Shown: positions 1,640 to 31,460, counted from the stretch's first letter. The stretch is 64,000 nucleotides of DNA from Chloroflexota bacterium (GCA_965219705.1 CBDCOK010000001.1:259-64258), one strand, 5' to 3'. Notes: generated by a model not told the origin, from the letters alone. A program made the numbers and translations.

Positions 1640-3219
1640 GGCTCTCCTCAAACAGGTGTGGGTGGGTTGAGGTCGATGGGCGCGACCGGGAGTAGCTACG
1701 GGACGGTCGGTCTGTCAACGCGCTGCGCGCGTTCTCCGCTTCGCTGCGACCCTGTCGGGTGACAGGCCGACCGTCGCTCCGCTGAGGGTGCAGTTATGGG
1801 CCTTGCGGCCCGGGCTGGACGGAAGCGTCCGGGCGGTCGAGAGGTTGTGTCGCCGACAGCGGGCGTCTACGGCGGGATGGGCTGGCCGGCCTCCCGTCGG
1901 CCGACGGAAGTCATTGAAAACGCAGGGGCTTCCTGTTCTCATTGGCGTTGCAATAGGACAACCAATGAGGAGGAGGACAGCCCCATGCGTGTGACCACAC
2001 TACTACGCCGACTGCTGGGAGTCACGCAGTTGTACGTCGAGCAGGTGCGCATCGGGACGACGGGGATGTTGAGCGTGTCGGCGCGGCCGTCGTGGCGTCG
2101 GTCCCGGTGCGGGGCGTGCGGCCGCCGGGCGGTGCGCTACGACCGGCAGCCAGCTCGGTTGTGGCGCCATGTGCCGTGGGGTCGGGTCACGGTGTGGCTG
2201 CGGTATGCCCCGTGGCGGGTATCGTGCGGTCGCTGCGGGGTTCGGGTCGAGCAGGTGTCGTGGGCGGCGCACGGCAGCGCGTTCACGGCGCCGCTCGAGG
2301 AGTTGGCGGCCTATCTGGCGCAGGTGACGGACCGGACGACGGCGAGTCGCCTGGTGGGGATTTCGTGGCCGGCGGTCGGCGGCATCGTCGAGCGGGTGGT
2401 GGCTCGCCGGCTGGACTCGACGCGGCTGGCCGGGCTGCGGCGGATCGGCATTGACGAGTTCAGCTATCGGAAGCGGCACCACTATCTGACGGTGGTGGTC
2501 GACCATGACCGCCGGTGCGTGGTCTGGGCCGGGCCGGGGCGCAGCGCCGAAACGCTGGGGACATTCTTCGACCTGTTGGGAGCGGCCGGCTGTGCCCGGA
2601 TCGAACTGGTGACGGCCGACCTGGCGGCGAGCTACCGCAAGGCGGTGGCGGCGCGGGTGCCGCAGGCGCGGGTGGTCTACGACCGATTTCACGTCGAGCG
2701 GCTGGCCGCCGACGCGGTCGACGAGGTCCGCCGCACGGAGCAACACCGCCTGGGGAAGACGTCGGGCAAGGTGCTCAAGAGGACGCGCTATGCGCTGCTG
2801 AAGCACCCGGCGCGCCTGAAGCCGGGTGAAGCGCGACGCCTGGCACGATTGCGCCGGCAGAACCGGGTCCTGGACCGCGCCTACGAGTTGAAGGAGTACC
2901 TGGCGACGATCCTCGAGCAGGCCAAGCCCGACGAGGCCGACGAACTGCTCGACCAGTGGCTGGACTGGGCGGCGCGGTCACGTCTGGCGCCGTTCGTCAA
3001 GCTGGCGCGGACGGTCCGGAAGCACGCGGCGGGGATCCTCGCCTACCTCGACACGAAGATGACCAACGGGCGGGTCGAGGGGATCAACAACAAGCTGCGG
3101 GTCATCGCGCGGCGCGCCTACGGCTTCCACTCGCACGGACCGCTCATCTCCATGCTGTATCTCTGCTGTGGAGGCATCGAGCTGGCGCCACCGCTACCCA
3201 CACGAATTTGAGGAGATTC
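1640..3219 (+). mobile_element. ISL3-family IS, copy 1 (1580 bp), 8-bp target-site duplication GACATTGG
   Basis: Left inverted repeat GGCTCTCCTCAAACAGGTGTGGGTGGG and right end ...CCCACACGAATTTGAGGAGATTC. Identical 8-mers GACATTGG sit at 1632-1639 and 3220-3227. Confidence 0.85.
1985..3211 (+). CDS. ISL3-family transposase (409 aa from the ATG at 1985)
   Basis: N-terminal zinc-finger-like region (CGACGRRAV...CGRCG) and DDE body with ISL3 hallmarks (IGIDEFSYRKRHHY..., GRVEGINNKLRVIARRAYGF). Identical protein recurs at 6531-7757. Confidence 0.85.
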   Translation: MRVTTLLRRLLGVTQLYVEQVRIGTTGMLSVSARPSWRRSRCGACGRRAVRYDRQPARLWRHVPWGRVTVWLRYAPWRVSCGRCGVRVEQVSWAAHGSAFTAPLEELAAYLAQVTDRTTASRLVGISWPAVGGIVERVVARRLDSTRLAGLRRIGIDEFSYRKRHHYLTVVVDHDRRCVVWAGPGRSAETLGTFFDLLGAAGCARIELVTADLAASYRKAVAARVPQARVVYDRFHVERLAADAVDEVRRTEQHRLGKTSGKVLKRTRYALLKHPARLKPGEARRLARLRRQNRVLDRAYELKEYLATILEQAKPDEADELLDQWLDWAARSRLAPFVKLARTVRKHAAGILAYLDTKMTNGRVEGINNKLRVIARRAYGFHSHGPLISMLYLCCGGIELAPPLPTRI

Positions 3220-3316
3220 GACATTGGCCGGCCGCGCCATTCGCATTCGAGAGCGCCAGGATGGCTCCTTCGACTACACTACTACTCGTGGGGGGTGAGA
3301 GAGAAAGGAACTACAA

Positions 3317-6184: not shown

Positions 6185-6522
6185 TCACTCGGGATCCCTC
6201 CTGCCAGCAAGAATCGCGACCACGTTGACCACTGCCGTTGTAGCCTCAGTGCACAGGGCCGCGTCGCGAAAGGTCGCCGTCCGGCGATGCTGCAACGCAT
6301 TCGAAAAGGCGAGTGCCGACTTAGCGTGTCTACGCGCCTCTTCGTTGGCATGACCTGCTAATTCGACCTCGAGATATGCCTCCAGCATTCGCTTGGCGTC
6401 CGTGTCACCAGGCTGAACGCCATCTGTCGGAGGATGCAGTTCTGGTGTATAGACCTCCTGGGCAAGCGAGATTAGTGTCTCTCGTCCCAGAAGCCCAACC
6501 GTCTGAAACCCTTCTTCGTTGC
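6185..6522 (-). pseudogene. C-terminal half of a gene split by ISL3 copy 2 (N-terminal half at 8103-8462)
   Basis: The ORF translation ...RNEEGFQTVGLLGRETLISLAQEVYTPELHPP... continues the N-terminal piece across the 8-bp duplication (RNEG|...). The first ~16 aa of the predicted ORF are IS-derived (PHEFEE = inverted-repeat sequence). Confidence 0.5.
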
Positions 6523-8102
6523 GAATCTCCTCAAATTCGTGTGGGTAGCGGTGGCGCCAGCTCGATGCCTCCACAGCAGAGATACAGCATGGAGATGAGC
6601 GGTCCGTGCGAGTGGAAGCCGTAGGCGCGCCGCGCGATGACCCGCAGCTTGTTGTTGATCCCCTCGACCCGCCCGTTGGTCATCTTCGTGTCGAGGTAGG
6701 CGAGGATCCCCGCCGCGTGCTTCCGGACCGTCCGCGCCAGCTTGACGAACGGCGCCAGACGTGACCGCGCCGCCCAGTCCAGCCACTGGTCGAGCAGTTC
6801 GTCGGCCTCGTCGGGCTTGGCCTGCTCGAGGATCGTCGCCAGGTACTCCTTCAACTCGTAGGCGCGGTCCAGGACCCGGTTCTGCCGGCGCAATCGTGCC
6901 AGGCGTCGCGCTTCACCCGGCTTCAGGCGCGCCGGGTGCTTCAGCAGCGCATAGCGCGTCCTCTTGAGCACCTTGCCCGACGTCTTCCCCAGGCGGTGTT
7001 GCTCCGTGCGGCGGACCTCGTCGACCGCGTCGGCGGCCAGCCGCTCGACGTGAAATCGGTCGTAGACCACCCGCGCCTGCGGCACCCGCGCCGCCACCGC
7101 CTTGCGGTAGCTCGCCGCCAGGTCGGCCGTCACCAGTTCGATCCGGGCACAGCCGGCCGCTCCCAACAGGTCGAAGAATGTCCCCAGCGTTTCGGCGCTG
7201 CGCCCCGGCCCGGCCCAGACCACGCACCGGCGGTCATGGTCGACCACCACCGTCAGATAGTGGTGCCGCTTCCGATAGCTGAACTCGTCAATGCCGATCC
7301 GCCGCAGCCCGGCCAGCCGCGTCGAGTCCAGCCGGCGAGCCACCACCCGCTCGACGATGCCGCCGACCGCCGGCCACGAAATCCCCACCAGGCGACTCGC
7401 CGTCGTCCGGTCCGTCACCTGCGCCAGATAGGCCGCCAACTCCTCGAGCGGCGCCGTGAACGCGCTGCCGTGCGCCGCCCACGACACCTGCTCGACCCGA
7501 ACCCCGCAGCGACCGCACGATACCCGCCACGGGGCATACCGCAGCCACACCGTGACCCGACCCCACGGCACATGGCGCCACAACCGAGCTGGCTGCCGGT
7601 CGTAGCGCACCGCCCGGCGGCCGCACGCCCCGCACCGGGACCGACGCCACGACGGCCGCGCCGACACGCTCAACATCCCCGTCGTCCCGATGCGCACCTG
7701 CTCGACGTACAACTGCGTGACTCCCAGCAGTCGGCGTAGTAGTGTGGTCACACGCATGGGGCTGTCCTCCTCCTCATTGGTTGTCCTATTGCAACGCCAA
7801 TGAGAACAGGAAGCCCCTGCGTTTTCAATGACTTCCGTCGGCCGACGGGAGGCCGGCCAGCCCATCCCGCCGTAGACGCCCGCTGTCGGCGACACAACCT
7901 CTCGACCGCCCGGACGCTTCCGTCCAGCCCGGGCCGCAAGGCCCATAACTGCACCCTCAGCGGAGCGACGGTCGGCCTGTCACCCGACAGGGTCGCAGCG
8001 AAGCGGAGAACGCGCGCAGCGCGTTGACAGGCCGACCGTCCCGTAGCTACTCCCGGTCGCGCCCATCGACCTCAACCCACCCACACCTGTTTGAGGAGAG
8101 CC
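6523..8102 (-). mobile_element. ISL3-family IS, copy 2 (1580 bp), 8-bp duplication TTCGTTGC; transposase 6531-7757 intact
   Basis: Same transposase as copy 1 (471-aa ORF identical) and the same terminal inverted repeats. TTCGTTGC is found at 6515-6522 and 8103-8110. Confidence 0.85.
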
Positions 8103-8462
8103 TTCGTTGCGAGACGCCGCAAGGCGATTTCGAAGCTCGTCGACCGTCCGGTCTACCCGCGCCCAGCCCGTTGGTTGCGCCTCCTCGGCGTAACCGGCAC
8201 GAATTCGCCCGATAAGCGGATTGACGAGCTCGCTCACAAACGTCCGCCGAGACTGATAGCTGGGAAGATCCCCGGTACTCCACCGACCATACCAATCCCA
8301 GAGATCTCTGTACCTGATGGGGTTGTCGATATCCCGTTCAGCGAGCTCAGTCTCTAGCGCCGCGAACGCCTGCTGGTAACGTTCGTTCACATCGGCTATA
8401 CGTGGACCACCAGTTGCCACCGCGATCATGGTGCCTCGCAACTCCTCCAGCACCCCGATCAA
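8103..8462 (-). pseudogene. N-terminal half of the IS-disrupted gene (see 6185-6522)
   Basis: MIGVLEELRGTMIAVATGG...VDELRNRLAASRNEG, then runs into the ISL3 inverted repeat. Its start abuts ISL3 copy 3. Confidence 0.5.
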
Positions 8463-8466
8463 TTCC

Positions 8467-10047
8467 GAATCTCCTCAAATTCGTGTGGGTAGCGGTGGCG
8501 CCAGCTCGATGCCTCCACAGCAGAGATACAGCATGGAGATGAGCGGTCCGTGCGAGTGGAAGCCGTAGGCGCGCCGCGCGATGACCCGCAGCTTGTTGTT
8601 GATCCCCTCGACCCGCCCGTTGGTCATCTTCGTGTCGAGGTAGGCGAGGATCCCCGCCGCGTGCTTCCGGACCGTCCGCGCCAGCTTGACGAACGGCGCC
8701 AGACGTGACCGCGCCGCCCAGTCCAGCCACTGGTCGAGCAGTTCGTCGGCCTCGTCGGGCTTGGCCTGCTCGAGGATCGTCGCCAGGTACTCCTTCAACT
8801 CGTAGGCGCGGTCCAGGACCCGGTTCTGCCGGCGCAATCGTGCCAGGCGTCGCGCTTCACCCGGCTTCAGGCGCGCCGGGTGCTTCAGCAGCGCATAGCG
8901 CGTCCTCTTGAGCACCTTGCCCGACGTCTTCCCCAGGCGGTGTTGCTCCGTGCGGCGGACCTCGTCGACCGCGTCGGCGGCCAGCCGCTCGACGTGAAAT
9001 CGGTCGTAGACCACCCGCGCCTGCGGCACCCGCGCCGCCACCGCCTTGCGGTAGCTCGCCGCCAGGTCGGCCGTCACCAGTTCGATCCGGGCACAGCCGG
9101 CCGCTCCCAACAGGTCGAAGAATGTCCCCAGCGTTTCGGCGCTGCGCCCCTGGCCCGGCCCAGACCACGCACCGGCGGTCATGGTCGACCACCACCGTCA
9201 GATAGTGGTGCCGCTTCCGATAGCTGAACTCGTCAATGCCGATCCGCCGCAGCCCGGCCAGCCGCGTCGAGTCCAGCCGGCGAGCCACCACCCGCTCGAC
9301 GATGCCGCCGACCGCCGGCCACGAAATCCCCACCAGGCGACTCGCCGTCGTCCGGTCCGTCACCTGCGCCAGATAGGCCGCCAACTCCTCGAGCGGCGCC
9401 GTGAACGCGCTGCCGTGCGCCGCCCACGACACCTGCTCGACCCGAACCCCGCAGCGACCGCACGATACCCGCCACGGGGCATACCGCAGCCACACCGTGA
9501 CCCGACCCCACGGCACATGGCGCCACAACCGAGCTGGCTGCCGGTCGTAGCGCACCGCCCGGCGGCCGCACGCCCCGCACCGGGACCGACGCCACGACGG
9601 CCGCGCCGACACGCTCAACATCCCCGTCGTCCCGATGCGCACCTGCTCGACGTACAACTGCGTGACTCCCAGCAGTCGGCGTAGTAGTGTGGTCACACGC
9701 ATGGGGCTGTCCTCCTCCTCATTGGTTGTCCTATTGCAACGCCAATGAGAACAGGAAGCCCCTGCGTTTTCAATGACTTCCGTCGGCCGACGGGAGGCCG
9801 GCCAGCCCATCCCGCCGTAGACGCCCGCTGTCGGCGACACAACCTCTCGACCGCCCGGACGCTTCCGTCCAGCCCGGGCCGCAAGGCCCATAACTGCACC
9901 CTCAGCGGAGCGACGGTCGGCCTGTCACCCGACAGGGTCGCAGCGAAGCGGAGAACGCGCGCAGCGCGTTGACAGGCCGACCGTCCCGTAGCTACTCCCG
10001 GTCGCGCCCATCGACCTCAACCCACCCACACCTGTTTGAGGAGAGCC
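8467..10047 (-). mobile_element. ISL3-family IS, copy 3 (1581 bp), duplication TCAATTCC; transposase frameshifted (pseudogene, 8475-9702)
   Basis: One extra nucleotide (cgcccc-t-ggcccgg near 9150) splits the transposase into 344-aa and 235-aa ORFs. TCAATTCC is found at 8459-8466 and 10048-10055. Confidence 0.8.
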
Positions 10048-10281
10048 TCAATTCCTCATCGGTCACTGCCACTCCCTCCGCCTTCGCCAGCAGGTCGCTG
10101 TCACGGGTGCCAGCCACGACGAGCGCGTGCGCCGCGACGAGGCAGCCGCGAATCGGTTCGGATCCGGCATTCTCGCTGACATCGTACACGAGTAGCAGCA
10201 TGCGGAAGGTGTGGTGGGTTTCGTCGCCTGGTCCCTCCTCAACTGGACGCAGGCCATGGCGATCCGGTGTGTGAGCCTGGG

Positions 10282-10725
10282 TCACGTGGGGTTGAGCGAC
10301 GGGCTTCCTCCCGGCCATCGTCCCGCCTTGATCACCGCCTCAATCTTTCTGGCTTCCTCGTCGGTCGCGGTCATGTGGACTCGGAAAGCCAGATGGTCGC
10401 GAACGTATGCCTTTACCTGCCCATCGAAGCTCAGAGTGCCGGCGCTGATGTCGGCGAGTTGCGACGGCTCGAGCAACGGGAGGACGAGCCGGTCAGCGAT
10501 GTAGACGTTGAACCGGTCGCCGGCCCGGTTGCCGTTCGCGTGCTCTGCGAGTCGGCCGCGTAACCCCCTATTCTTGGTTGCCATTCCGACGTAGATGAAT
10601 GACCCGTCCTGGTCCCAGATCGTGTAGACGCCCCCCTCCTTCGTCGGCACGGTGCGTCGTACCTGCAGCCAACCCCTGAATTGGTGTAGCTGGCCATGCT
10701 CCAAGTCACGCTTCCAGTTCGCCAT
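10282..10725 (-). CDS. GIY-YIG nuclease-domain protein (147 aa)
   Basis: GGVYTIWDQDGSFIYVGMATKNRGLRGRLAEH fits the GIY-YIG motif. Confidence 0.55.
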   Translation of the reverse strand: MANWKRDLEHGQLHQFRGWLQVRRTVPTKEGGVYTIWDQDGSFIYVGMATKNRGLRGRLAEHANGNRAGDRFNVYIADRLVLPLLEPSQLADISAGTLSFDGQVKAYVRDHLAFRVHMTATDEEARKIEAVIKAGRWPGGSPSLNPT

Positions 10726-10859
10726 TGCCCCCCCTGTCTGGGCGAGTCAAATCGGCCGCGGCGAGGCCTTGAGGCCGGCGCGATCGTTGCGCTCGCGTGC
10801 CTGCACGGGCCTGCGGCGCTGGCAGGGGTTGCCGGAGCGGACAAGCTGCGCGTCGGCAC

Positions 10860-11652
10860 CCCGCGTCATTGAATACGCCCGGTCTCTAAATCACGATGCG
10901 CTCGATCTCGTCGACGCTGATCGTGTCCGCCGTCCGGTCGTAGAGCTTGGTCGTCTTCGGCGACGCGTGCCCGGCGATCCGCTGCGCGTGCTCGAGCGTC
11001 CCACCGTTCGACAAGTACGCCGTGATCCCCGTCGCCCGGAACGTATGGCAGCAGGTCGACGCCGACAGTTCCGCCGCCGCCGCCCGACGCTTGATCATCG
11101 CCAGGGACGAGCAGCCGCGACAGCGCCCGCCCCGTCAGCCTCTGCCCCGTCGGGTCGACGCTCTGGAAGAGCGGCGCCTTCGCTTCGCCCGGCCCGGCCA
11201 CCTCGAGGTAGCGTCGAGGGCCTCGCCCGCCCGGTGGTGGGCCGGGACATCGTGCCGCTTGCCGCCCTTTTCGTGGAGCCTCAGCCACCCCCGACTCCCC
11301 TGCCGGAAGTAGTCCGCCCGCCGCATCGCGACGACCGCGCTCACCCGCGCGAAGCTGTAGAGCATGACCGACAGAAGCGCCCGGTCGCGAATGCCCGCGA
11401 GCGTCCTGGTGTCGATCGCCTCGAGCAGCCGGCGGGCCTCGGCCGGCGAGAGCACCGGCGTCGCGCCCTTCGTGACCACATGCTCGGCCCCCGGACTGCC
11501 GCCGCCGGGTTCACCGGGAGGAGCTGGCTGACGACGAGCCAGTCGCCGAGCATGCGGATGGCGGCCAGGTGCTGCTTGACCGTGGGCGCCGAGCCAGGGT
11601 GGCTCCGGATGTAGGCCGCCACGTGCAGCGGCGAGACCGTCTCGAGCGCTAG
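10860..11652 (-). pseudogene. Tyrosine recombinase, degenerate copy (frameshifted, N-terminal part cut off by the IS1634 insertion; remnant continues at 13744-13812)
   Basis: Fragments in three frames: C-terminus ...HTFRATGITAYLSNGGTLEHAQRIAGHASPKTTKLYDRTADTISVDEIERIVI; middle ...RDRALLSVMLYSFARVSAVVAMRRADYFRQGSRGWLRLHEKGG; N-terminal part ...LETVSPLHVAAYIRSHPGSAPTVKQHLAAIRMLGDWLVV. After the IS, ...RTRAAYGRAVGQFLAWCEARGL. Confidence 0.6.
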
Positions 11653-14365: not shown

Positions 14366-14567
14366 AGGCCAGGAACTGCCCCACCGCCCGACCGTAGGCC
14401 GCCCGCGTCCGCCGGTTCGCGATCCGCGCCGCGAAGAACTCGAGGAACTTCCCCACCGCCGCCGGCCCCGCGTCGACGACGAGCCGCGGCAACGCGAGCC
14501 CGCCCCCCTCGACGGCCGCCGGGCGCGGAGCGGTCATCCGCTCGACCAGCGCCACCTCTTCGCTCAT
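14366..14567 (-). pseudogene. Tyrosine recombinase N-terminal fragment
   Basis: MSEEVALVER...LVVDAGPAAVGKFLEFFAARIANRRTRAAYGRAVGQFLA, then breaks into histidine-kinase antisense sequence. Confidence 0.55.
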
Positions 14568-15190
14568 CGCGTCACCCCTCCCCCGCCGCCGGCCGCCTCT
14601 TCCCCGCCGACGAGCGCCTCGAAGCTCTCGTAGTCGTTCGTCAGCGCCTGGGCCAGCGCGAAGAGCCGCCCGACGGCCTCCTGCGCCCCGCCGAAGCGGA
14701 CCTCGATCCGGTCGGGCTCGACCGACACGCCCGCGGGCAGCCCCGCCAGGCGCGCCTCGAGCGCCTCGACGGGAACCGCCACGCGGATCCCGGTGAGCCG
14801 GGCCCGGCGGATCTCGGTCACGACCTTTTCGCGCCGCGTCTCCTCGTGGCGGAAGGCCGCGCGCTTCCGCTGCCTTCGGAGCTGGCGGAGGAGCTCGGCG
14901 CGCGGGAGGGTCAGCAAGTGCCCGGTCCGGCCGGCCCCGAAGGCCGTCATCAGCTGCGCGGCGCGGACCTTCGAGACACCGAAGAGGCGTTCGAGGTCGC
15001 GGCGCGTGAGGAGGTCCTGGTCGAGGTCCTCGAGCTGCTTGATCGCGTCCGGGATGGCGAGCAGCCAGCGCGGGCGGGCGGGCACGCCTCTACCCTGCCA
15101 ACCCTCGGCGGGTCTTGCGGTTGGGAGGATCTGCGGCGGCCACGGTGTGCGCCATGTTAGTGAACGGTCGTTCACAAGGCAAGGCGGCAC
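14564..15190 (-). CDS. Integrase-associated helix-turn-helix protein, Xis-like accessory (start uncertain)
   Basis: ...IKQLEDLDQDLLTRRDLERLFGVSKVRAAQLMTAFGAGRTGHLLTLPRAELLRQL... The same protein precedes the intact integrase at 42595-42987. The stop overlaps the integrase start (ATGA). Confidence 0.45.
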   Translation of the reverse strand: MPPCLVNDRSLTWRTPWPPQILPTARPAEGWQGRGVPARPRWLLAIPDAIKQLEDLDQDLLTRRDLERLFGVSKVRAAQLMTAFGAGRTGHLLTLPRAELLRQLRRQRKRAAFRHEETRREKVVTEIRRARLTGIRVAVPVEALEARLAGLPAGVSVEPDRIEVRFGGAQEAVGRLFALAQALTNDYESFEALVGGEEAAGGGGGVTR

Positions 15191-15218
15191 TGGTACTCGG
15201 TACGTAGGGCATAAAGCG

Positions 15219-15240
15219 GGTTATGGGATGGGCGGCGAGG
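15219..15240 (+). repeat. Direct repeat GGTTATGGGATGGGCGGCGAGG (right flank of DGR cassette; partner at 19363-19384)
   Basis: 21 of 22 nt identical to 19363-19384, same orientation. The pair brackets TR, RT, avd, target A and its promoter. Confidence 0.5.
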
Positions 15241-15432
15241 ACAACACGCCGCCAAAGAAAAGGCTCGCCGCTACGAAACGGCGGCCGGAGCCCGTCGCCC
15301 CCCCGTAGGGACCAGGACGGGCCCCGGCCGTGACGCCGCCGCGCTCATCCGACGGCGCCGGCTCATCATGACCGGCCCTGGACGCTCCCACGCTCGCCCG
15401 GCGCGGCCGTGACCGCGCCGGCTCCGGCAGAG

Positions 15433-15562
15433 GAGCGTGCTCGAAACGCGAAAACCGTTGTTGTCGTTCCGGTTGGCGGCGCGGTTCCTGTTGCGCGCGC
15501 CAGGCTGGAGGTTCTCGGCGTTGTTGTTCCACGAGCCGCCGCGCAGCACGCGACGGCCGGGG
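15433..15562 (-). repeat. DGR template repeat (TR)
   Basis: Minus-strand sequence CGTGCTGCGCGGCGGCTCGTGG-AACAACAACGCCGAGAACCTCCAGCCTGGCGCGCGCAACAGGAACCGCGCCGCCAACCGGAACGACAACAAC-GGTTTTCGCGTTTCGAGCACGCTC. In the target reading frame it would encode RGGSWNNNAENLQPGARNRNRAANRNDNNGFRV. Differences from VR-A lie almost entirely at TR adenines. It starts ~8 nt after the RT stop. Confidence 0.8.
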
Positions 15563-15567
15563 GCCGG

Positions 15568-15948
15568 TCAGGCCCCCGGGACCGGTTGCCCGCGAGGCGC
15601 GAACCACCCGTCCCGGAAGATCGCGCGGCGCAGACGCCACGTGTCGGCGTGCGCCGCATGCGCCACCCAGGCGCGAACCCGCTGCTCCACCTCGCTTCGC
15701 GTCACCGTGCCCGCCCGCCAGCGGTCGCGCAGCCCGCGCAGCCGGTTGCGGAAGCGGCGCACGTTCGCCTCCGGCAGCCGCCGACGGCCGCCCGGCCGCA
15801 GCTCGAACCCGAGGAACGTCGCCGGCGACGACGTCGCCGCCACGTGCGTCTTCGCCGGGTGCAGCGACAGCCGCCGATGCGCCAGAAATGCAGCCACGCG
15901 GCCGCGCCACGCCTCGAGCCGCACCGGGTCGTCGGCGAACAACGCGAG
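15568..15948 (-). CDS. DGR reverse transcriptase, exon 2 (C-terminal thumb region)
   Basis: ...(F)ALFADDPVRLEAWRGRVAAFLAHRRLSLHPAKTHV...FLGFEL...NVRRFRNRLRGL...VEQRVRAWVAHAAHADTWRLRRAIF has the typical DGR RT C-terminal organisation. It continues the YVDD motif of exon 1 across the intron. Confidence 0.75.
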   Translation of the reverse strand, partial: LALFADDPVRLEAWRGRVAAFLAHRRLSLHPAKTHVAATSSPATFLGFELRPGGRRRLPEANVRRFRNRLRGLRDRWRAGTVTRSEVEQRVRAWVAHAAHADTWRLRRAIFRDGWFAPRGQPVPGA

Positions 15949-16598
15949 GTGAGTCGCCCGGGGGAATCTCACCCCCGGGCGCTCGCAGAACTGTACGTGA
16001 ACGTCTCCGCTCATACAGCTCCCATCATCCAGCCGCCGGCGTGAACGGCTTCGCGTGGCTCGACGGCTCCTCCCGCGCGCGCGGTTGACCGTCGGGACAC
16101 GCTGGATGACGCGACCCCTTTGCTCCATCGAGTTTCCCCGACTTCATCGCTCGTACGGGTGCCTCGCATCGGACCTCTCATCCTTGGGGGTCGGCCCCTT
16201 GGATTTCTCCCTTCGCATCGAGGCGACAGGTTCCCACGTTCCGCACAAGGGCCTGGTGCAGGGTCACGCCACCTTTATGCCGGGTGCCGCCCAGCCAAGC
16301 TGCAGGCTCCCGCTGGACTCGTCCCGGGTTAACGACTCGCCCCGGTTTCGACACCGTCCCTACGCTTTCGACACGTTGCCGGTGGTTCATCCTCTTCGTC
16401 TCCCTGCACCCTACCTGACGCGGTCAAGCCGCGCCGTTTCCGTGACGCTTACCACCTCGGCTCTTGACCGAGGCAGCGCACGGCGGTTTGAAGCCTCCCC
16501 CTGCCGGGCGGCTCCGAGGGGCCTGCCCTCATCCCTCGTGCAGCATGGCTGCAGCTAGGTGGCCATCTCGGCCTCCTTTCCGCGCCTTCGTGGCGCAC
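15949..16598 (-). mobile_element. ORF-less group II intron (~650 nt) inserted in the DGR RT gene
   Basis: 5' end GUGCGCC (Ll.LtrB-like GUGCGCCC). Domain V GAGCUGUAUGAGCGGAGACGUUCACGUACAGUUC (plus 15988-16021) has the AGC triad, a GAGA tetraloop and a CACGUAC bulge. Domain VI GAGCGCCCGGGGGUGAGAUUCCCCCGGGCGACUC has a bulged A at -6. 3' end ...ACUCAC. Domain V-to-3'-end spacing is 73 nt. No ORF is present. Confidence 0.75.
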
Positions 16599-17304
16599 AA
16601 TCGTCGACGTAGCGCACATACGGCGCGCCGAGGGCCTCGGTGACGAAGTGGTCGAAGCGGTCGAGGTAGACGTTGGCGAAGAACTGGCTCGTCAGGTTGC
16701 CGATCGGCAGACCGCGCCGCCGCTCGTACGGCGTGAACAGGTCGTCGCCCGGATAGTAGATGTGCACCGGCTCCTGCGGGTTCGAGCCGTCCACGATCCG
16801 GTCGAGCACCACCAGCGTCCGCCGGCACGCGATGCGACGCCGGAGGTCGGCCTTCAGCACCTCGTGGTCGATGGCCGGGAAGTAGCGGAAGACGTCGCCG
16901 CGCAGGACCCAGCGGTATCGGTCGCGCAGCCGCTCGTAGCGCGCCACCGCGCGGTGCGTCCCCTTGCCCGCGCGGTTGGCGTAGCTGTGCGCGATGAACC
17001 CCCGCTCGAACACCGGCGCGACCACCGAGTGCACCGCGTGGTGCACCACCCGGTCGCGGAACGGCGCGGCCGAGATCATTCGGCGCTTCGGGTCGCGGAT
17101 CTCGAACGAGACGAAGCCGCCCGGCCGCCATGTCCCCGCCCGCAGTTCGCGCTCCAGCCGCAGGACCTCCGGCTCCAGGTTCGCGAGAAACCCCGCCGGC
17201 ACCGGCACCCGGCGCTTACCCGCCGCCGCACGCTGGGCCGCCGCGCACAGCGCCTCGAACGTCGCGATTCGCTCGAACAGCCCGTCAGCCCTGCGCCGCC
17301 TCAT
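16599..17304 (-). CDS. DGR reverse transcriptase, exon 1 (ATG at 17304; fingers and palm through YVDD)
   Basis: MRRRRADGLFERIATFEALCAAAQRAA...FRDRVVHHAVHSVVAPVFERGFIAHSYANRAGKGTHRAVARYE...GLPIGNLTSQFFANVYLDRFDHFV...APYVRYVDD. The IGNLTSQ motif is DGR-specific. The ORF then reads into the intron (DDCAPRRRGKEAEMAT*). Confidence 0.8.
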
Positions 17305-17602
17305 CCGCCTTCCGCCAGCCCCCGACGAGCCGGCCGGTCTCGTCGAGGACGCGCGCCGCGTGCTCGTAACGGCGCTCGTCGAGGTGCCCGAGATCCTTCG
17401 CGAGCCGGCACAGCAACCGCAGCTTCTCGATGCCCAGGTTGGCCGCCTGCAGGTGCCGGCGACGGTCCCGCGAATACGTCGCCTCGACCAGCCGCTCCAG
17501 CACGTCGAGCGCCGTCGCCTGCAGCCGATCCCCCAGCAGAAACTTCTGGCGGCGGGGAAACTTCTCCACCGTCGGCACCAGCCACAGCACGAACCCGTAC
17601 AT
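17285..17602 (-). CDS. avd: Avd-like DGR accessory variability determinant (four-helix-bundle family), ~105 aa
   Basis: MYGFVLWLVPTVEKFPRRQKFLLGDRLQATALDVLERLVEATYSRDRRRHLQAANLGIEKLRLLCRLAKDLGHLDERRYEHAARVLDETGRLVGGWRK follows the Avd / 23S-rRNA-IVS four-helix-bundle pattern (..FPK.eRf.L..ri...a....). It overlaps the RT start by 20 nt. Confidence 0.65.
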   Translation of the reverse strand: MYGFVLWLVPTVEKFPRRQKFLLGDRLQATALDVLERLVEATYSRDRRRHLQAANLGIEKLRLLCRLAKDLGHLDERRYEHAARVLDETGRLVGGWRKADEAAQG

Positions 17603-17743
17603 CGACTCCAGCGCGGGACCCGTCCGACGCCCGCCCCGGCCACGTCCGTCCGACGACGACACCATCCCGAATCCTGGGGGGCAACGCCCGGGCAACGCCC
17701 CCCAGACCCCCCTGAAAGATGTAAAGAGCTGAAGGGTCAAGAG

Positions 17744-19279
17744 TTAATCCAGCGTCCTCGACACGCGAAAACCGACGTCGGCGAGCCGGTAGGCGGCGCG
17801 GAGCCAGTCGCGCGCGCCAGGCCGGAGGGAGCTGTCGTACCACGAGCCGCCGCGCAGCACGCGATGGCCGCAGTTCCCCTCCCAGTTCCCCTCCCAGCAG
17901 TCCGACGTCCACTCCCACACGTTCCCAACCATGTCCGACAGCCCCGCCGCGTTCGCGCCGTGGCCGCCCACAGGGCACGTTCCATCAGGACGCGACCCCA
18001 GACCCAACCGGTCGCACCCGGGCTGAGAACCGGTCGCCGCTCGCGCCCACTCCGACTCCGTCGGCAACCGATAAGTCGCGCCTGTCGTCCGGCTCAGCCA
18101 CGACACATACGCCTGAACGTCGTCCCAGCTCACGCACGTCACAGGATGACGGTCCGTCTGCGGAAAGCCCGGGTTGCGCCACGAATCGCCATCGCCGAGC
18201 GTGGTGCAATCGCCGACAGCCCCAGACCCCGTCGCCGAGGCGAACGCACGATACTCCCCCACCGTCACCTCGTAACGGCCCAGCGCCAGAGCGCCGCCGG
18301 GAAGCACCACCATCTCCGGACAATCGTCGCAGTCACGGAACGCGTCCCCAGGACGATACCCAGGGTCCGAGACGCCACCGAACCCGGGCGAGCTCGCGCC
18401 GGAGACCCGGGAACCGGCTGCCGGAGAACCCGTCGCGCCCGACGGCCGACCGGACGCGCCCGCCGGAACACCCGGCGACGAACGAAGGGCCGACAGCCGA
18501 TTCTCGGCCAGACGGCGAAACACCCCGTTCGGGAACTGCTCGAGATACGCCTCGAAGTCGGCTGCGTCGCTGCTGTTCACCACCGACTGCCAGAACACCG
18601 TCTCCTGCTCCGCGCTCGCCGCAGGCGACGGCGGAGACGACGGCTGCTCACGCGCACCCGCCGCGGGCCGTTGCCGGAACGTCGTCTGGCCAGGCCCGGA
18701 AGACCGCAGCGCCGCCACCGACGAGCCATCCAGATAGCCCGTCGCGCGTGAACCCCGCGACGATTGCCAGCCCCGGATCGCGGCACGCGTACGCGGGCCG
18801 AACATCCCGTCCGCGCCACCCGGGTCGAACCCCGCCGACTGAAGCCCCCGCTGAACCTCCTGACGAGCCGCACGGTCCAGGCCAAGCCCCTCCTCGACCA
18901 CCGGGCCATTGCAGCCCCACACCCGAACGACGCACCCAGAACCGCCGCCTCGAGAGCTGCACGCCGACAGCGCCGCCTGCTGAGCCGCGGACGCCGAGCC
19001 ATACGATTCCGCCCAGCCCACCGCCGTGCTGTCCGAGTCCTGGTCCGCCGCATATGCCGCGCAACGCGCGAACGTCAGAACCACAGAGCAGTTCGAGCCG
19101 CACTCCGACAGCGCCCGCCGCTGCGCCGCGCCCGCCGTCTCGTAGTCCACCGCCCAGCCCCACTGGTCGCCCTGCCGCTCGTCGACCGCCAACGCGCCCA
19201 CCGGCTGCGCAAACGCTGCACCCGCCGAACTCAGCATCACCCAAACCACGAGCGAAGACCAACGGTGTGCCTGCATCAA
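17744..19279 (-). CDS. DGR target protein A: signal peptide, DUF4189-like Cys domain, peptidoglycan-binding domain, FGE-sulfatase (C-type-lectin-fold) domain with C-terminal VR
   Basis: 511 aa; MMQAHRWSSLVVWVMLSSAGAAFAQP; VGALAVDERQGDQWGWAVDYETAGAAQRRALSECGSNCSVVLTF...; GFDPGGADGMFGPRTRAAIRGWQ; ...HPVTCVSWDDVQAYVSWLS..ATYRLPTESEW...GNVWEWTSDCW...RVLRGGSWYDSSLRPGARDWLRAAYRLADVGFRVSRTLD. Confidence 0.85.
   Translation of the reverse strand: MMQAHRWSSLVVWVMLSSAGAAFAQPVGALAVDERQGDQWGWAVDYETAGAAQRRALSECGSNCSVVLTFARCAAYAADQDSDSTAVGWAESYGSASAAQQAALSACSSRGGGSGCVVRVWGCNGPVVEEGLGLDRAARQEVQRGLQSAGFDPGGADGMFGPRTRAAIRGWQSSRGSRATGYLDGSSVAALRSSGPGQTTFRQRPAAGAREQPSSPPSPAASAEQETVFWQSVVNSSDAADFEAYLEQFPNGVFRRLAENRLSALRSSPGVPAGASGRPSGATGSPAAGSRVSGASSPGFGGVSDPGYRPGDAFRDCDDCPEMVVLPGGALALGRYEVTVGEYRAFASATGSGAVGDCTTLGDGDSWRNPGFPQTDRHPVTCVSWDDVQAYVSWLSRTTGATYRLPTESEWARAATGSQPGCDRLGLGSRPDGTCPVGGHGANAAGLSDMVGNVWEWTSDCWEGNWEGNCGHRVLRGGSWYDSSLRPGARDWLRAAYRLADVGFRVSRTLD
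17747..17869 (-). repeat. DGR variable repeat VR-A (cognate to TR 15433-15562)
   Basis: Aligns with TR over ~125 nt. The ~24 differences at TR-adenine positions give AAC to TAC/GAC/AGC/CTC/GTC/GCC codons. There is a 6-nt indel, four other non-A changes (gcc-tcc, gtt-gtg, agc-agg, ctc-ctg) and an identical 3' GGTTTTCGCGT segment (IMH-like). Confidence 0.8.
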
Positions 19280-19362
19280 CCTTCTCCTTGGATCTTTGCC
19301 CTCGAGCTCGGAGAGGAACGTATCACAGGGCTCGGAAATAACCTGCCCGCGTCACAACCGCA

Positions 19363-19384
19363 GGTTATGGGATGGGCGGCGGGG
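19363..19384 (+). repeat. Direct repeat GGTTATGGGATGGGCGGCGGGG (left flank of DGR cassette)
   Basis: See 15219-15240. Confidence 0.5.
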
Positions 19385-19586: not shown

Positions 19587-20225
19587 GTGATGATCATTTC
19601 GTTTCTAAACCAGAAAGGTGGCGTGGGGAAAACGACGCTTGCCCTCCACGTGGCCGTGGCGCTGCAGCTCCAGGGCCGGGGGCGTGGCCTTGTGGTCGAT
19701 GCGGATCCGCAGGGCTCCGCTCTCGACTGGCAGGCGCAGCGGGCCGAGCCTTCCCCCGTGCCGGTGGTCGGGATGCCGACGCCGACGCTACATCGCGACG
19801 CACGCGCGATCGCGGATACGGACTATCTGGTGATCGACGGGCCGCCGCGGATGGACGTGATCGCGAAATCGGCCATTGCGGCGAGCGACCTAGTGTGCAT
19901 TCCGGTCCAGCCGTCGCCGCTCGACGTGTGGGCGGCGGGCGAGATCTTCGATCTGGTCGAGGAGTGCCGGGTGCTGAAGCCGAGCTTGGCCGTCCGGTTC
20001 GTAATCAACCGGGCGGTTCAGGGGACGGTGCTGGCCGCGGAGGTCGCGGCGGCGCTCGAGAAGTTCAAGACGCCGGTGCTGCCGGTTGTGCGGAACCGCA
20101 CGGAGTACGCGAAGGCGATCCGGGCAGGGAAGACGGCGATGGAAACGCAGCCGCGCGGGCGGGCGGCCAGGGATATCGAGGTGCTGACTGACGCGGTGTG
20201 GAACGCGGCACGGGGGGAGCCATGA
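19587..20225 (+). CDS. parA: ParA-family partition ATPase
   Basis: MMIISFLNQKGGVGKTTLALHVAVAL... is a deviant Walker A (KGGVGKTT) in a ParA/MinD-fold protein of 212 aa. Confidence 0.85.
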   Translation: MMIISFLNQKGGVGKTTLALHVAVALQLQGRGRGLVVDADPQGSALDWQAQRAEPSPVPVVGMPTPTLHRDARAIADTDYLVIDGPPRMDVIAKSAIAASDLVCIPVQPSPLDVWAAGEIFDLVEECRVLKPSLAVRFVINRAVQGTVLAAEVAAALEKFKTPVLPVVRNRTEYAKAIRAGKTAMETQPRGRAARDIEVLTDAVWNAARGEP

Positions 20226-29645: not shown

Positions 29646-29891
29646 CAATGAATCCAGGCGGTTTCTGGCCGCGCGTGGCGGCGAAGCGGGGTTGACGTAG
29701 TGGGCGTTATGCGACGCCGGCCGGGGCGGCCAGGCAGGGCAGGCTGCGGAACAACTCGCGGCAATGCTCCTCGAGGCCGTATCGAACGACGTCCGCGGCG
29801 GGCTCGATGCGCCATACCAACCTGAGCCTGAGTCCCCGAATCGGCCTTCCCCGTGGTAGGTTGGCTCTTCTCAGCAAAGGAGCAGAACACC
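29646..29891 (+). promoter_or_regulatory. Conserved ~250-bp leader of DGR-target paralogues (copy B); begins CAATGAATCC, contains GGGCGTTATG(C/G)GACGCCGG
   Basis: Near-identical leaders at 44686-44934 and 55345-55576. RBS AAAGGAG 8 nt before the ATG. Confidence 0.5.
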
Positions 29892-31460
29892 ATGCGGACC
29901 GTTGCCGACTCGATGCTGGTTCTGTGCGCGTTGGTGTGCACGGCGTCGGTGGCCTCGGCGCAGCCGCCGGTGGGTGCGCTGGCGATCGACGAGCGGCAGG
30001 GCGACCAGTATGGCTGGGCGGTGGACTACGAGACGGCGGGCGCCGCGCAGGCGCGGGCGCTCGGCGAGTGCGGCGCTGGTTGCCGGGTGGTGTTGACGTT
30101 CAACCGTTGCGCCGCCTACGCGGTAGATCAGGACGCGGACAGCACGGCGGTGGGCTGGGCGGAATCGTTCACGTCGTCGTCGTCGGCCCAGCAGGCGGCG
30201 CTGTCGGAATGCAGCTCACGGGGCGGTTCCGGTTGCGTCGTTCGGGTGTGGGGCTGCAACGGCCCGGTGGTCGAGGAGGCTCTGGGGCTCGACCGCGGGG
30301 CGCGTCAGCAGATTCAGCGGGGCCTGCAGTCGGCGGGCTTCGACCCGGGCGGTGCGGACGGCTTGTTCGGTCCGCGCACGCGCGCAGCGATTCGGCGCTG
30401 GCAGACGTCCCGTGGTTCTCGCGCGACGGGCTATCTGGATGGCGCGTCGGTGGCGGCGCTGCGACCGTCGGCACCGGGTCAGCCGACGTTCCGCCAGCGG
30501 GAGGCGGTCGGTGCGGACACGGCTGCGGCACCTGCCGTCTCCGCGCCGCCGCCGCCAGCGGCCTCCGCCGAGCTCGAGGGGCTGTTCTGGCAGTCGGTCA
30601 TGAACAGCACGAACCCGTCGGAGTTCGAGGCGTATCTGCGGCGGTTCCCGAACGGGCTGTTCAGCGAGCTGGCCGAGGCCCGTCTGGCGGCGCTGCGCGC
30701 GCCGGCGGGCGGGCCGCCGGGTGCGGCAGGGGCGGCGGTCGGCGGCGCCAGGCCGACCTCGGGTTCGCGGGCCTCCGGGGCGACGGCGCCGGCATCCGGG
30801 TCGCGGGTCGGCGCCGGGCCCGGGCGGGGCTTCGGTGCGGCGGCCGGCGCGGACGCTCGTCCCCGGCCGGGCGCGGTGTTCCGGGACTGCGACGTGTGCC
30901 CGGAGATGGTGGTGATGCCGGACGGCCGCCTGGCACTGGGCCGCTACGAGGTGACGGTGGGCGAGTATGGGGCGTTCGCGGCGGCGACGGGGGGCGGCGC
31001 GGGCGCCGGATGCATCACCGTTGGCGATGGCGATTCGTGGCGGGACCCCGGCTTTCCGCAGACGGATCGTCATCCTGTGACGTGCGTGAGCTGGGACGAC
31101 GCGCAGGCGTACGTGTCGTGGCTGAGCGGGCAGGCGGGGGCGACGTATCGGTTGCCGACGGAGACGGAATGGGACCGGGCGGCCGCGGGGTCCCAGCGCG
31201 GGTGCGACTATGGGCGGACGGACATCTTTGGCACGTGCCCGGTGGGCTCCTATGGGGCGAACGGCGCGGGTCTGTTCGGCATGGTCGGGAACTTGTGGGA
31301 ATGGACGCAGGACTGCTGGGAGGACTGTGGCCGCCGCGTGCTGCGCGGCGGCTCCTGGGACTTCGGCGCGGAGTTCCAGCGGCCCGGCGCGCGCTACTGG
31401 GACACCGCCGGCGGCCGGAGCGGCAACGTCGGTTTCCGTGTCGCGAGGACGCCGGATTAG
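29892..31460 (+). CDS. DGR-target paralogue B (same architecture as A); C-terminal VR at ~31329-31454
   Basis: MRTVADSMLVLCALVCTASVASAQPPVGALAIDERQGDQYGWAVDYETAGAAQ... ; ends RVLRGGSWDFGAEFQRPGARYWDTAGGRSGNVGFRVARTPD. Confidence 0.85.
   Translation: MRTVADSMLVLCALVCTASVASAQPPVGALAIDERQGDQYGWAVDYETAGAAQARALGECGAGCRVVLTFNRCAAYAVDQDADSTAVGWAESFTSSSSAQQAALSECSSRGGSGCVVRVWGCNGPVVEEALGLDRGARQQIQRGLQSAGFDPGGADGLFGPRTRAAIRRWQTSRGSRATGYLDGASVAALRPSAPGQPTFRQREAVGADTAAAPAVSAPPPPAASAELEGLFWQSVMNSTNPSEFEAYLRRFPNGLFSELAEARLAALRAPAGGPPGAAGAAVGGARPTSGSRASGATAPASGSRVGAGPGRGFGAAAGADARPRPGAVFRDCDVCPEMVVMPDGRLALGRYEVTVGEYGAFAAATGGGAGAGCITVGDGDSWRDPGFPQTDRHPVTCVSWDDAQAYVSWLSGQAGATYRLPTETEWDRAAAGSQRGCDYGRTDIFGTCPVGSYGANGAGLFGMVGNLWEWTQDCWEDCGRRVLRGGSWDFGAEFQRPGARYWDTAGGRSGNVGFRVARTPD

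Follow-up and report, generated by a model that had tools for sequence, protein, structure and literature searches.

Can a diversity-generating retroelement (DGR) still diversify its target when its reverse transcriptase (RT) gene is cut, within the codons of the catalytic motif, by a second retroelement? In a DGR, the RT and Avd copy the TR RNA into cDNA, misreading adenines, and the cDNA then overwrites the VR. The question is raised by a locus within a 64-kb stretch of bacterial DNA (the whole of which is termed the window), where the target gene, avd, the RT gene, and the TR are all present on the minus strand (Table 1). We hold with considerable confidence that this is a plasmid-borne DGR with the order avd-RT-TR, and that its RT gene is split by an ORF-less group II intron.

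Table 1. Features of the DGR and of the intron within its RT gene (window coordinates)
Feature	Position	Strand	Basis
DGR target gene	17744-19279	-	ORF; Pfam; PDB matches
VR, 114 nt	17751-17864	-	alignment with TR
G+C-rich inverted repeat GGGGGGC(N14)GCCCCCC	17676-17703	-	seen in sequence
avd, 105 aa	17285-17602	-	NCBIfam and Pfam
RT exon 1	16599-17304	-	ORF; L001 alignment breaks exactly at its end
Intron target site in RT, IBS2 and IBS1	16599-16611	-	EBS/IBS pairing
IBS2 TACGTCG	16605-16611	-	
IBS1 GACGATT	16599-16605	-	
ORF-less group II intron, 651 nt	15948-16598	-	Rfam; exact empty site in L001
Domain I core	16413-16530	-	
EBS1 AGTCGTT	16331-16337	-	
EBS2 TGGCGTG	16265-16271	-	
14-nt deletion site	between 16161 and 16160	-	
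ORF-deletion junction	near 16043	-	
Domains V-VI	15948-16023	-	
RT exon 2	15568-15947	-	L001 alignment; spliced product vs P0001; bRT alignment
TR, 120 nt	15434-15553	-	alignment with VR
Terminator-like hairpin, T-rich tail	15266-15283	-	consensus scan only

Components of the DGR

An earlier note on this DNA had described a four-part DGR, and its Avd family, DGR-type RT, adenine-specific TR/VR differences, target fold, and gene order are all borne out; what does not stand is an intact RT. The avd product (105 aa) matches NCBIfam NF033474 (DivGenRetAVD) at 100.6 bits (cut-off 80) and Pfam bAvd at 63 bits (cut-off 40), and the 3' end of its gene does overlap the RT start ATG (17304) by 20 nt, as had been proposed. 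The gene order, avd-RT-TR, is that of architecture B2 (Wu et al., PMC5758913).

The target protein, 511 aa when counted from a TTG start (an ATG lies one codon further on), consists of a hydrophobic N-terminus, DUF4189 (PF13827, 60 bits), PG_binding_1 (PF01471, 47 bits), a Pro/Ser/Gly-rich linker, and an FGE-sulfatase domain with a C-type-lectin fold (PF03781, 133 bits), and it ends in ...RGGSWYDSSLRPGARDWLRAAYRLADVGFRVSRTLD. When compared with PDB chains, its last 200 aa find matches in PvdO and the FGE family. The VR comprises the final 38 codons of this FGE-sulfatase-domain gene. Four paralogous target-like genes are present in the window.

The TR begins 14 nt past the RT stop, downstream of the RT gene as had been claimed, contains 26 adenines, mainly in AAC codons, and would encode RGGSWNNNAENLQPGARNRNRAANRNDNNGFRV; no second TR-like sequence was found in the window. 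On realignment, the TR and VR differ by a single 6-nt indel and share an identical CGGTTTTCGCGT block, both as noted before. Multiple-of-3 TR/VR indels occur in about 7% of curated DGRs, mostly beside AAC (Wu et al. 2018, PMC5758913), and the length difference is uninformative either way. With a codon-respecting gap, 17/25 aligned TR adenines are changed versus 2/89 other bases (Fisher p 2e-12); with a minimum-mismatch gap, the corresponding figures are 15/23 and 3/91 (Fisher p 1.5e-10). Across the two gap placements, 15-17 of 18-19 mismatches thus fall at TR adenines, fewer than the ~24 counted earlier, and the claimed adenine enrichment holds (p about 1e-10 to 2e-12). One of these A-site differences (CAG/CGG) may be a mutation of the TR rather than a change in the VR, because the TR of an uninterrupted allele, L001, carries a G there.

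Toward the 3' end of the repeats, a 12-nt block identical between TR and VR is followed by two non-A differences, and the last 24 nt of the VR (17751-17774, CGGTTTTCGCGTGTCGAGGACGCT) may constitute an IMH-like end. The non-A mismatches within the repeat (T>G, C>G) are confined to this end of the VR, as would be expected for IMH versus IMH*. The inverted repeat 48 nt downstream of the VR (GGGGGGC/GCCCCCC) folds as a hairpin, and the stability of the region is no better than that of shuffles (z 0.52). Likewise, the terminator-like hairpin ~150 nt past the TR, possibly the end of the operon, comes from a consensus scan with no more hits than in shuffled sequence.

The VR is hypervariable between two alleles that are otherwise 97% identical: it differs by 18.4% from that of L001, versus 0.3-3.8% for the neighbouring genes and 0.3% for avd plus RT exon 1. 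Such a pattern would be indirect evidence of ongoing mutagenic retrohoming.

Among known systems, the Bordetella phage BPP-1 DGR supplies the most similar solved RT (bRT), and it shares the Avd family, adenine-specific TR/VR differences, a gene of the C-type-lectin fold with the VR at its 3' end, and a conserved 3' end followed by few non-A differences. In BPP-1, however, the order is avd-TR-RT and the target is mtd, whereas the target here is of the FGE-sulfatase type with DUF4189 and peptidoglycan-binding domains, the surroundings are plasmid-like and IS-rich rather than phage, and the RT is intron-split. The B2 DGRs with CLec/FGE-sulfatase targets surveyed by Wu et al. 2018 (PMC5758913) have the same avd-RT-TR core, and the multiple-of-3 indel beside AAC codons at the present locus is of the kind recorded there; an intron-interrupted RT, however, receives no mention in the text of that survey.

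The interrupted RT gene

The RT had been described as a single gene with an IGNLTSQ motif, YVDD, and a DGR-type thumb. All three are present (the motifs as GLPIGNLTSQ, the counterpart of GIPIGSLTSQ in bRT, and RYVDD), but the ORF carrying IGNLTSQ and YVDD terminates 14 codons past the latter, and the thumb is encoded 651 nt further downstream, in an ORF of its own beyond a group II intron. Specifically, exon 1 encompasses codons 1-235 and the first base of codon 236, its 3' end encoding ...GLPIGNLTSQFFANVYL...RYVDD plus T, and exon 2 extends from the last two bases of codon 236 through the stop (...(F)ALFADDPVRLEAWRG...), including the thumb. No uninterrupted, expressible RT gene is present; the ORF becomes whole only after conceptual splicing, which yields RYVDD-F-ALFADD and an RT of 361 aa. 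The junction RYVDDFALF is thereby restored, as in all uninterrupted homologues, the alignment with bRT continues across it, and the spliced protein, aligned along 100% of its length, shares 99% identity with the uninterrupted P0001 of allele L001. Its best PDB relative is bRT (8ub7, 5e-42, 147.5 bits), the best group II RT being GsI-IIC at 76.8 bits. The NCBIfam RT models searched were exclusively non-DGR, and the RT fell below the cut-off for all of them; its assignment to the DGR type follows from the PDB match and the motif. The interruption of the catalytic motif by an ORF-less intron alters how the element would function now, and whether it does.

L001 provides an exact empty site for the intron. 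Its positions 8574-10706 align to window positions 18748-16599, breaking exactly at the end of exon 1, and positions 10707-11374 align to 15947-15276. In the RT, the two alleles differ by 10 synonymous and 3 non-synonymous changes.

The intron, which is 651 nt in length (a multiple of 3) and runs from 5' GTGCG to ACTCACC 3', matches Rfam models RF01999 (108.4 bits, gathering 36) and RF00029 (55.7 bits, gathering 40), both at full length, and its ribozyme core includes the 5' GUGYG, the domain I core, the domain V AGC triad, and the domain VI bulged A. IBS1 and IBS2 together are the Tyr-Val-Asp-Asp codons plus T. EBS1 (AGUCGUU) pairs with GACGAUU at 7/7 positions and EBS2 (UGGCGUG) with UACGUCG at 7/7, G-U pairs included, the GUC (Val) codon of the DGR being read by EBS2 via a G-U wobble.

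No ORF, and no intron-encoded RT/maturase (IEP), was found in the intron, and no IEP was found elsewhere in the 64-kb window. Relatives of 1877 nt match the window intron with 94-95% identity in nt 1-555 and 98-100% in nt 557-651; where the window intron has its ORF-deletion junction, they possess a long ORF, 491 codons from stop to stop, with the group II RT motifs PQGG..SPLLAN and RYADD. These IEP-encoding relatives occur in related Vicinamibacterales MAGs. An additional 14 nt (ACAGGGGCGGAGCG), present in 29/29 aligned relatives, are absent from the window intron, and the domain before domain IV (domain III by position) is incomplete: the missing nucleotides are the 5' strand of its covarying basal helix, and their loss takes that strand from 8 of the 12 base pairs. 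The helix is conserved, with 96% of cells paired and compensatory changes giving a score reached by 0/500 shuffles. Because the deletion sits between imperfect direct repeats, a partly substitute helix can be drawn.

Lineage of the intron and its host sites

Copies in the group II RT genes of other genomes match the window intron at 94-98% identity, and an S. meliloti pSymA intron does so at 79%. It would appear to be class D / IIB3-like, together with M.a.I5, P.l.I2, and B.th.I3, judging from its likeness to rhizobial introns, the target site that it has in common with those introns, and their description in PMC2504315. At least 120 genome loci contain RYADD|GTGYGCC, with 94 of those having a usable 5' exon being of the group II RT type. 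More than 100 relatives have the same EBS1 and EBS2 as the window intron. Among the 144 copies compared, both elements hardly vary and, in the majority of copies, base-pair with the exon; in IS6-hosted relatives, covariation is seen at position -2. Plasmid twintrons were found in S. meliloti, B. elkanii, and C. pasteurianum.

The intron probably arrived by retrohoming, its source being a population of En-less, RmInt1-like introns whose usual home is the stretch encoding RYADD in the RT genes of other group II introns. Under the proposed target rule, EBS1 (AGUCGUU) and EBS2 (YGGCGUG) would pair with GAYGAYU and UAYGCNG, and GUC would be tolerated via a G-U wobble. RYADD homing by En-less group II introns has published precedent (Tourasse & Kolsto 2008, PMC2504315), and the host RT of B.th.I3 is retron-like, which shows that host RTs are not restricted to those of group II introns (PMC2504315). 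Compared by description, B.th.I3, M.a.I5, UA.I3, and P.l.I2 are likewise inserted in RT catalytic-motif DNA with motif codons as IBS1/IBS2 (PMC2504315), and the published B.th.I3 target, AGGTATGCTGATGACT, fits the GAYGAYT rule found here. In contrast to these, the window intron has a DGR RT with RYVDD as its host (hence the G-U wobble), and it is ORF-less with a further internal deletion.

DGR-type RT exons occur at the same intron junction in 10 metagenome loci (9 distinct), three of which have introns carrying an IEP. For example, L167, with both exons present, splices in frame to RYVDDFLIL; L162 has a target, avd, and an AAC-rich TR upstream; and L129 is a related DGR with an RT about 70% similar, the same target C-terminus, and an intron at the same site. 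We found no literature report of an intron-split DGR RT. Considering the window together with these at least nine distinct loci, three with a full IEP, it is tempting to suggest that RT-active-site-homing group II introns recurrently colonise DGR RT genes, hypermutation then being gated or silenced by the maturase of a second retroelement, although we regard this as rather unlikely. If true, DGR activity would have a natural on/off layer, and one retroelement would be parasitising another family at its catalytic codons.

Could the locus be explained otherwise? We give almost no credence to the idea that the repeats are an ordinary diverged duplication beside an unrelated RT. Duplicated 3' ends do exist, given the four target-like paralogues, but the paralogue ends VR2 and VR3 show 13-14 non-A mismatches versus 2-3 in VR1, the adenine bias is strong (p about 1e-10), and an Avd equivalog and a bRT-like RT are adjacent; the mismatch recount contradicts such a duplication. 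Nor is the 651-nt insert at all likely to be an assembly chimera, in which intron reads originating in a group II RT gene were joined to the DGR RT via shared RY(A/V)DD-coding sequence. About 16 nt of 5' exon are indeed in common with the usual host sites, and many scanned contigs break at this intron; however, both junctions are base-exact, the insert length is divisible by 3, exon sequence in common at the 3' junction goes no further than TCG, the insert has private deletions of its own, and independent metagenome contigs (L167) have the same arrangement with both exons. Less remote, but improbable, is an intron ancestral in the DGR lineage, from which L001 would have arisen by precise intron loss. 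The presence of an intron at the same site in the related L129 is consistent with this, as is divergence from L001 that is uneven along the cassette. Against it, more than 100 uninterrupted full-length homologues stand among the matches listed versus a handful that are interrupted, the low-divergence block runs past the intron (the first exon-2 difference from L001 is 123 nt downstream), and the 94-98% identity of the intron to copies in the group II RT genes of other genomes points to recent spread.

Present activity of the DGR

In this DGR, the VR that the cDNA would overwrite is the 3' end of a gene of surface type with the FGE-sulfatase fold. Because the RT gene is cut at its active-site codons, the DGR would be workable only with the intron spliced out, and since the maturase ORF has been lost, RT synthesis would require splicing with a maturase encoded at another place in the genome. 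Translation without splicing would produce a truncated RT ending 14 codons past YVDD, with the thumb missing. On balance, we lean slightly toward a DGR that is presently off or strongly attenuated rather than fully active, because the 5' strand of a conserved, covarying helix is missing. Three observations count against an inactive element: a partly substitute helix can be drawn, domain III defects are tolerable given protein help, and both RT exons are intact and near-identical to the intron-less allele. Exons in this state would be expected if the insertion is very recent, but equally if selection has continued to maintain function.

A sizeable possibility, although short of even, is that the intron splices well in vivo by means of the maturase of a near-identical, ORF-containing copy at another site in the genome, leaving a fully functional DGR gated by another retroelement. 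The 14-nt loss from the conserved helix and the lack of a maturase gene within 64 kb argue against efficient splicing. In its favour, the scores of domains I, V, and VI (108 and 56 bits) resemble those obtained for working relatives (110-123 and 56-58 bits), the EBS/IBS pairing is complete, the exons are intact with mainly synonymous changes in the RT, and IEP-encoding relatives with RNA 94-100% identical occur in related Vicinamibacterales MAGs. Documented cases in which a related IEP splices ORF-less introns in trans come from T. elongatus (PMC2882425) and Trichodesmium (PMC12584367), where the TeI3 family and the dnaN introns, respectively, are similarly ORF-less ribozymes within genes that need the RT/maturase of a related intron. 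Their hosts are other introns, tRNA genes, and housekeeping genes, whereas the host here is the RT of another retroelement.

The split reverse transcriptase of the DGR

In diversity-generating retroelements (DGRs), a reverse transcriptase (RT) and Avd copy a template repeat (TR) with errors at adenines, and the product replaces the variable repeat (VR) of a target gene. The minus-strand cassette described here is a genuine DGR of already known architecture, and its new feature is an ORF-less, RT-active-site-homing group II intron within the DGR RT. We document the parts of the DGR, the exact insertion, the rule by which the intron pairs with its target and the recurrence of such insertions in other DGRs. 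No report of an intron-interrupted DGR RT was found in the literature searched, which included two DGR surveys. The avd-RT-TR order corresponds to architecture B2 of Wu et al. (PMC5758913), and the earlier claim of an avd gene of ~105 aa overlapping the RT start by 20 nt was borne out (see table). The target protein ends in ...RGGSWYDSSLRPGARDWLRAAYRLADVGFRVSRTLD, and a statistically undistinctive GGGGGGC/GCCCCCC hairpin is present 3' of the VR.

Features of the DGR, its intron and the target-gene paralogues in the window
Feature	Position	Strand	Remarks
DGR target gene	17744-19279	minus	511 aa; DUF4189, PG_binding_1 and FGE-sulfatase domains
VR	17751-17864	minus	final 114 nt of target gene, matching TR
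avd	17285-17602	minus	105 aa; NCBIfam Avd equivalog 100.6 bits (cut-off 80) and Pfam bAvd
RT start	ATG at 17304	minus	20-nt overlap with avd stop; frame holds GLPIGNLTSQFFANVYL and RYVDD
Group II intron domain I core	16413-16530	minus	RF01999, 108.4 bits (gathering 36)
Intron EBS1	16331-16337	minus	standard AGUCGUU; 7/7 pairs with GACGAUU
Intron EBS2	16265-16271	minus	UGGCGUG; 7/7 pairs with UACGUCG
Group II intron domains V-VI	15948-16023	minus	RF00029, 55.7 bits (gathering 40)
TR	15434-15553	minus	120 nt, 14 bases past RT stop (15568-15570)
Target-gene paralogue	29853-31460	plus	DUF4189/PG_binding_1/FGE-sulfatase
Target-gene paralogue	44896-46611	plus	DUF4189/PG_binding_1/FGE-sulfatase
Target-gene paralogue	49617-51173	minus	DUF4189/PG_binding_1/FGE-sulfatase
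VR-like 3' ends of two paralogues	VR2 31333-31452, VR3 49624-49739		13-14 non-adenine mismatches to the only TR

The adenine-specific pattern of TR/VR differences proposed in the earlier note is real, but the ~24 adenine-site differences counted there were too many, the recount giving 15-17. When all placements of the single 6-nt gap were tried, the minimum-mismatch gap left 18 differences, 15 of them at TR adenines (15/23 adenines vs. 3/91 other bases; Fisher p 1.5e-10), and a gap that respects codons (VR without GCC GAG) left 19, with 17 at adenines (p 2e-12). One A>G difference (CAG to CGG) may be due to a change on the TR side, because the TR of the sister allele on contig L001 has G there. 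With the codon-respecting gap, two non-adenine differences are left, T>G and C>G. Both lie 3' of the CGGTTTTCGCGT block, which the two repeats share unchanged, and so in the terminal stretch where a difference between the repeat ends known as IMH and IMH* is to be expected. The 6-nt indel falls between AAC codons; since TR and VR differ in length in ~7% of curated DGRs, usually by a multiple of three and usually beside AAC (PMC5758913), it is uninformative on activity.

The IGNLTSQ and YVDD motifs previously attributed to the RT were found, but the RT is not one ORF. The RYVDD-bearing ORF continues as CAPRRRGKEAEMAT and then stops, and the remainder of the protein (LALFADDPVRLEAWRG... plus the thumb) is in a different ORF, 15568-16128; a database look-up of the products of both ORFs returned no further copies on record. 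Matches to group II intron domain I and domains V-VI are the sole Rfam matches across the whole window, with no second intron. The intron interval (16598-15948) is 651 nt (3 x 217) with 5' end GTGCG, and once it is conceptually removed, GAT T runs into TC GCG, which yields RYVDD-F-ALFADD in a 361-aa protein. This spliced RT has >100 full-length uninterrupted homologues, with RYVDDFA(L/A)F in every one inspected. The top homologue, P0001, is 99% identical across 100% of the 361 aa and is encoded on L001 (ENA ERZ25067264), where the sister allele has no intron. Window 18748-16599 aligns with L001 8574-10706 and window 15947-15276 with L001 10707-11374, an empty site that sets both intron boundaries with single-base precision. 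Among solved structures, the spliced RT is nearest to the Bordetella phage bRT (8ub7, 147.5 bits; top group II RT, 76.8 bits), in an alignment that spans the exon junction.

Target-site pairing and probable origin of the intron

EBS1 and EBS2, the intron stretches that pair with exon stretches IBS1 and IBS2, were compared across 144 aligned copies of the lineage and are nearly always AGUCGUU and YGGCGUG, respectively. EBS1 pairs with GAYGAYU (Asp-Asp plus U) and EBS2 with UAYGCNG (Tyr-Ala plus G), and G residues in both lie opposite codon third positions, so that synonymous variants are tolerated. The U in the Val codon of the DGR RT is read via G-U wobble and, judged from this pairing, the intron would need no retargeting to accept a DGR RT. 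Lineage members have also been observed inside IS6-family transposase genes on plasmids of R. leguminosarum (L002 2970) and Rhizobium sp. T1473 (L005 3501), where they sit directly past (Y/H)LDE codons, the R. leguminosarum copy being ORF-less. EBS1 is altered in these relatives (AUUCGUU, CUUCGUU) and tracks their own exons, supporting the EBS1 assignment. Because these copies follow (Y/H)LDE with a matching EBS1, the lineage apparently prefers codons of acidic catalytic motifs (GAYGAN) in mobile-element enzymes.

Introns B.th.I3, M.a.I5, UA.I3 and P.l.I2 are known to insert in the RYADD codons of RT ORFs, with those codons themselves serving as IBS1 and IBS2, and the host of B.th.I3 is a retron-like RT (Tourasse and Kolsto, PMC2504315), making it the nearest precedent for the intron-split DGR RT. 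Plasmid BLAST placed relatives of the window intron in rhizobia, Clostridium and others. Three of them, in S. meliloti pSymA (L003), B. elkanii (L006) and C. pasteurianum pCLOPA01 (L004), share an arrangement in which, according to annotation, a group II RT gene is split by an inner intron with its own ltrA. The intron junction lies just past ...RYADD in S. meliloti and B. elkanii, the two inspected, and the spliced S. meliloti junction is RYADD-F-VMGFE. A scan of one genome per species with TAYNNNGAYGAYK followed by GTGYGCCRCGA yielded at least 120 matches from many bacterial and archaeal phyla. The 5' exon reached at least 60 codons in 102 matches listed, of which 94 were of group II RT type (PQGG..SPLLAN...RYADD) and none of DGR type.

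Insertion of the intron recurs in other DGR RTs. In a metagenome scan limited to NTN middle codons, 10 of 49 loci (9 distinct) have a DGR-type 5' exon, G(L/I)P(I/L)G(N/S)xTSQ...DHF...RY(V/M)DD, directly abutting the intron. These are L129, L143, L144, L146, L150, L151 (identical in sequence to L162), L164, L166 and L167; an RF01999 match is present in all that have sufficient downstream sequence, and L150, L164 and L167 possess a full intron-encoded RT/maturase (IEP). The L167 intron (1860 nt) conceptually splices in frame to RYVDDFLIL, L162 has a target, avd and an AAC-rich TR upstream, and L129 is related to the DGR of the window. DGR finders and surveys treat the RT as a single ORF, and intron-split DGR RTs would therefore escape detection or be taken for pseudogenes; with nine further examples, this blind spot seems to be a recurring one. 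Two retroelement families are thereby linked, in that a lineage reading RT catalytic-motif codons can cross from group II RT to DGR RT via wobble.

The identical intron 5' start was also seen past ..ARSRYVDD in the metagenome loci L132, L133, L145, L148, L153, L158, L168, L169 and L173, and past RY(V/L)DD in L155, L171 (..DYPDPDRYVDD) and L154 (..RYKRYLDD). The ORFs concerned gave no match to either the DGR or the group II RT query, and at several of the loci the sequence diverges where the EBS would be expected. In the DGR-type locus L151, besides the RT intron, group II domains V-VI are matched a second time (2800-2875, minus strand), upstream of the RT gene, so some DGR cassettes may hold more than one intron. 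Finally, two Vicinamibacterales MAG loci (L114 4457-702 and L027 1067-1) each hold two head-to-tail copies of this intron, with no base between the end of one and the start of the other; in L027, the first of the two copies is ORF-less.

Condition of the intron and activity of the cassette

The nearest relatives of the window intron are in Vicinamibacterales MAGs. Relatives of 1877 nt, whose identity to the window intron is 94-95% across nt 1-555 and 98-100% across nt 557-651, carry a long ORF of 491 codons between stops in which group II RT motifs, RYADD among them, are present; this makes the window copy a delta-ORF derivative. In another ORF-less variant, of 698 nt, the deletion has other end-points. 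A search of the window with an IEP query returned no maturase/IEP gene, the DGR RT itself being the sole match. The window copy also lacks 14 nt (ACAGGGGCGGAGCG) past intron nt 438 that are kept in 29/29 other aligned copies, among which the internal AGGGGCGGA is nearly invariant. In a 25-sequence alignment, these 14 nt supply the 5' side of the basal helix in the domain directly before domain IV, with 95.9% of cells paired and both-side changes at nine pairs; 0/500 shuffles attain the observed helix score, and slid controls are 41-59% paired. The deletion takes the 5' partner of 8/12 basal pairs and lies between imperfect repeats, so that a weaker substitute helix can be drawn. On this structural model, the loss is probably harmful to splicing, to an uncertain degree.

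Comparison with L001 bears on the history of the cassette. Divergence is 0.3% in avd (1/298 nt) and in RT exon 1 (2/706 nt), 3.2% in RT exon 2, 3.8% in the target 5' of the VR, 7-8% in non-coding spacers and 18.4% in the VR, where differences are mostly at TR-adenine positions. The RT differences comprise 10 synonymous and 3 non-synonymous changes. The disparity between RT exon 2 and avd plus RT exon 1 (window 15568-17602 vs. L001 9640-11086; Fisher p 1e-4) suggests, from sequence divergence, that an avd-RT 5' block was recently exchanged, with a boundary ~120 nt downstream of the intron; a boundary at the intron itself is ruled out, as differences in exon 2 begin only 123 nt further downstream. 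VR divergence alongside a conserved RT indicates that the lineage has diversified its VR, which speaks to lineage history and not to the time after intron arrival. As for the present cassette, RT production would require trans-assisted splicing, and the damaged intron copy would probably splice poorly; together these would tilt the balance, modestly, toward a silent rather than an active cassette. In intron-split hosts, DGR activity would then depend on intron splicing, and the intron-bearing and intron-less alleles, 97% identical, offer a natural pair on whether insertion halts VR diversification.

Surroundings of the cassette

The three target-gene paralogues resemble sister DGR cassettes that have decayed and have neither RT nor TR. 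VR2 and VR3 were considered as further targets of the window TR and rejected because of their non-adenine mismatches. An avd remnant (49482-49584; 103 nt, 91% identical to avd) lies 3' of one paralogue.

The entire DGR cassette is enclosed by a 25-nt direct repeat (15216-15240 and 19360-19384; 23/25 identical, with an exact 19-mer, GGTTATGGGATGGGCGGCG), whose copies, 4144 nt apart, are its only two occurrences in the window and which is absent from L001. One terminator-like hairpin overlaps with the upstream copy, and a second such hairpin is ~25 nt from the downstream copy. Direct repeats of 25 bp have been reported to flank the host retroelement of B.th.I3.

The region is IS-rich, with one IS present in three copies of ~99.8% identity (1635-3226, 6519-8103 and 8460-10052), one of them inverted. 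Two further stretches (32202-33586 and 51412-52795) are 96% repeats of each other and show Tn3-type similarity. A DDE_Tnp_1 IS (46659-48174) shares 89-91% identity with copies from Vicinamibacterales MAGs, and this common IS suggests that the host is related to them. ParA is encoded at window 19587-20225, and RepA_C and ParA in the sister locus L001 make the setting plasmid-like. Finally, the next ORF downstream of the DGR (14564-15190, minus strand) encodes 208 aa and has no Pfam match; it also adjoins the DGR in L001 (86% at the DNA level) and has a duplicate in the window at 42392-43014 (88%).
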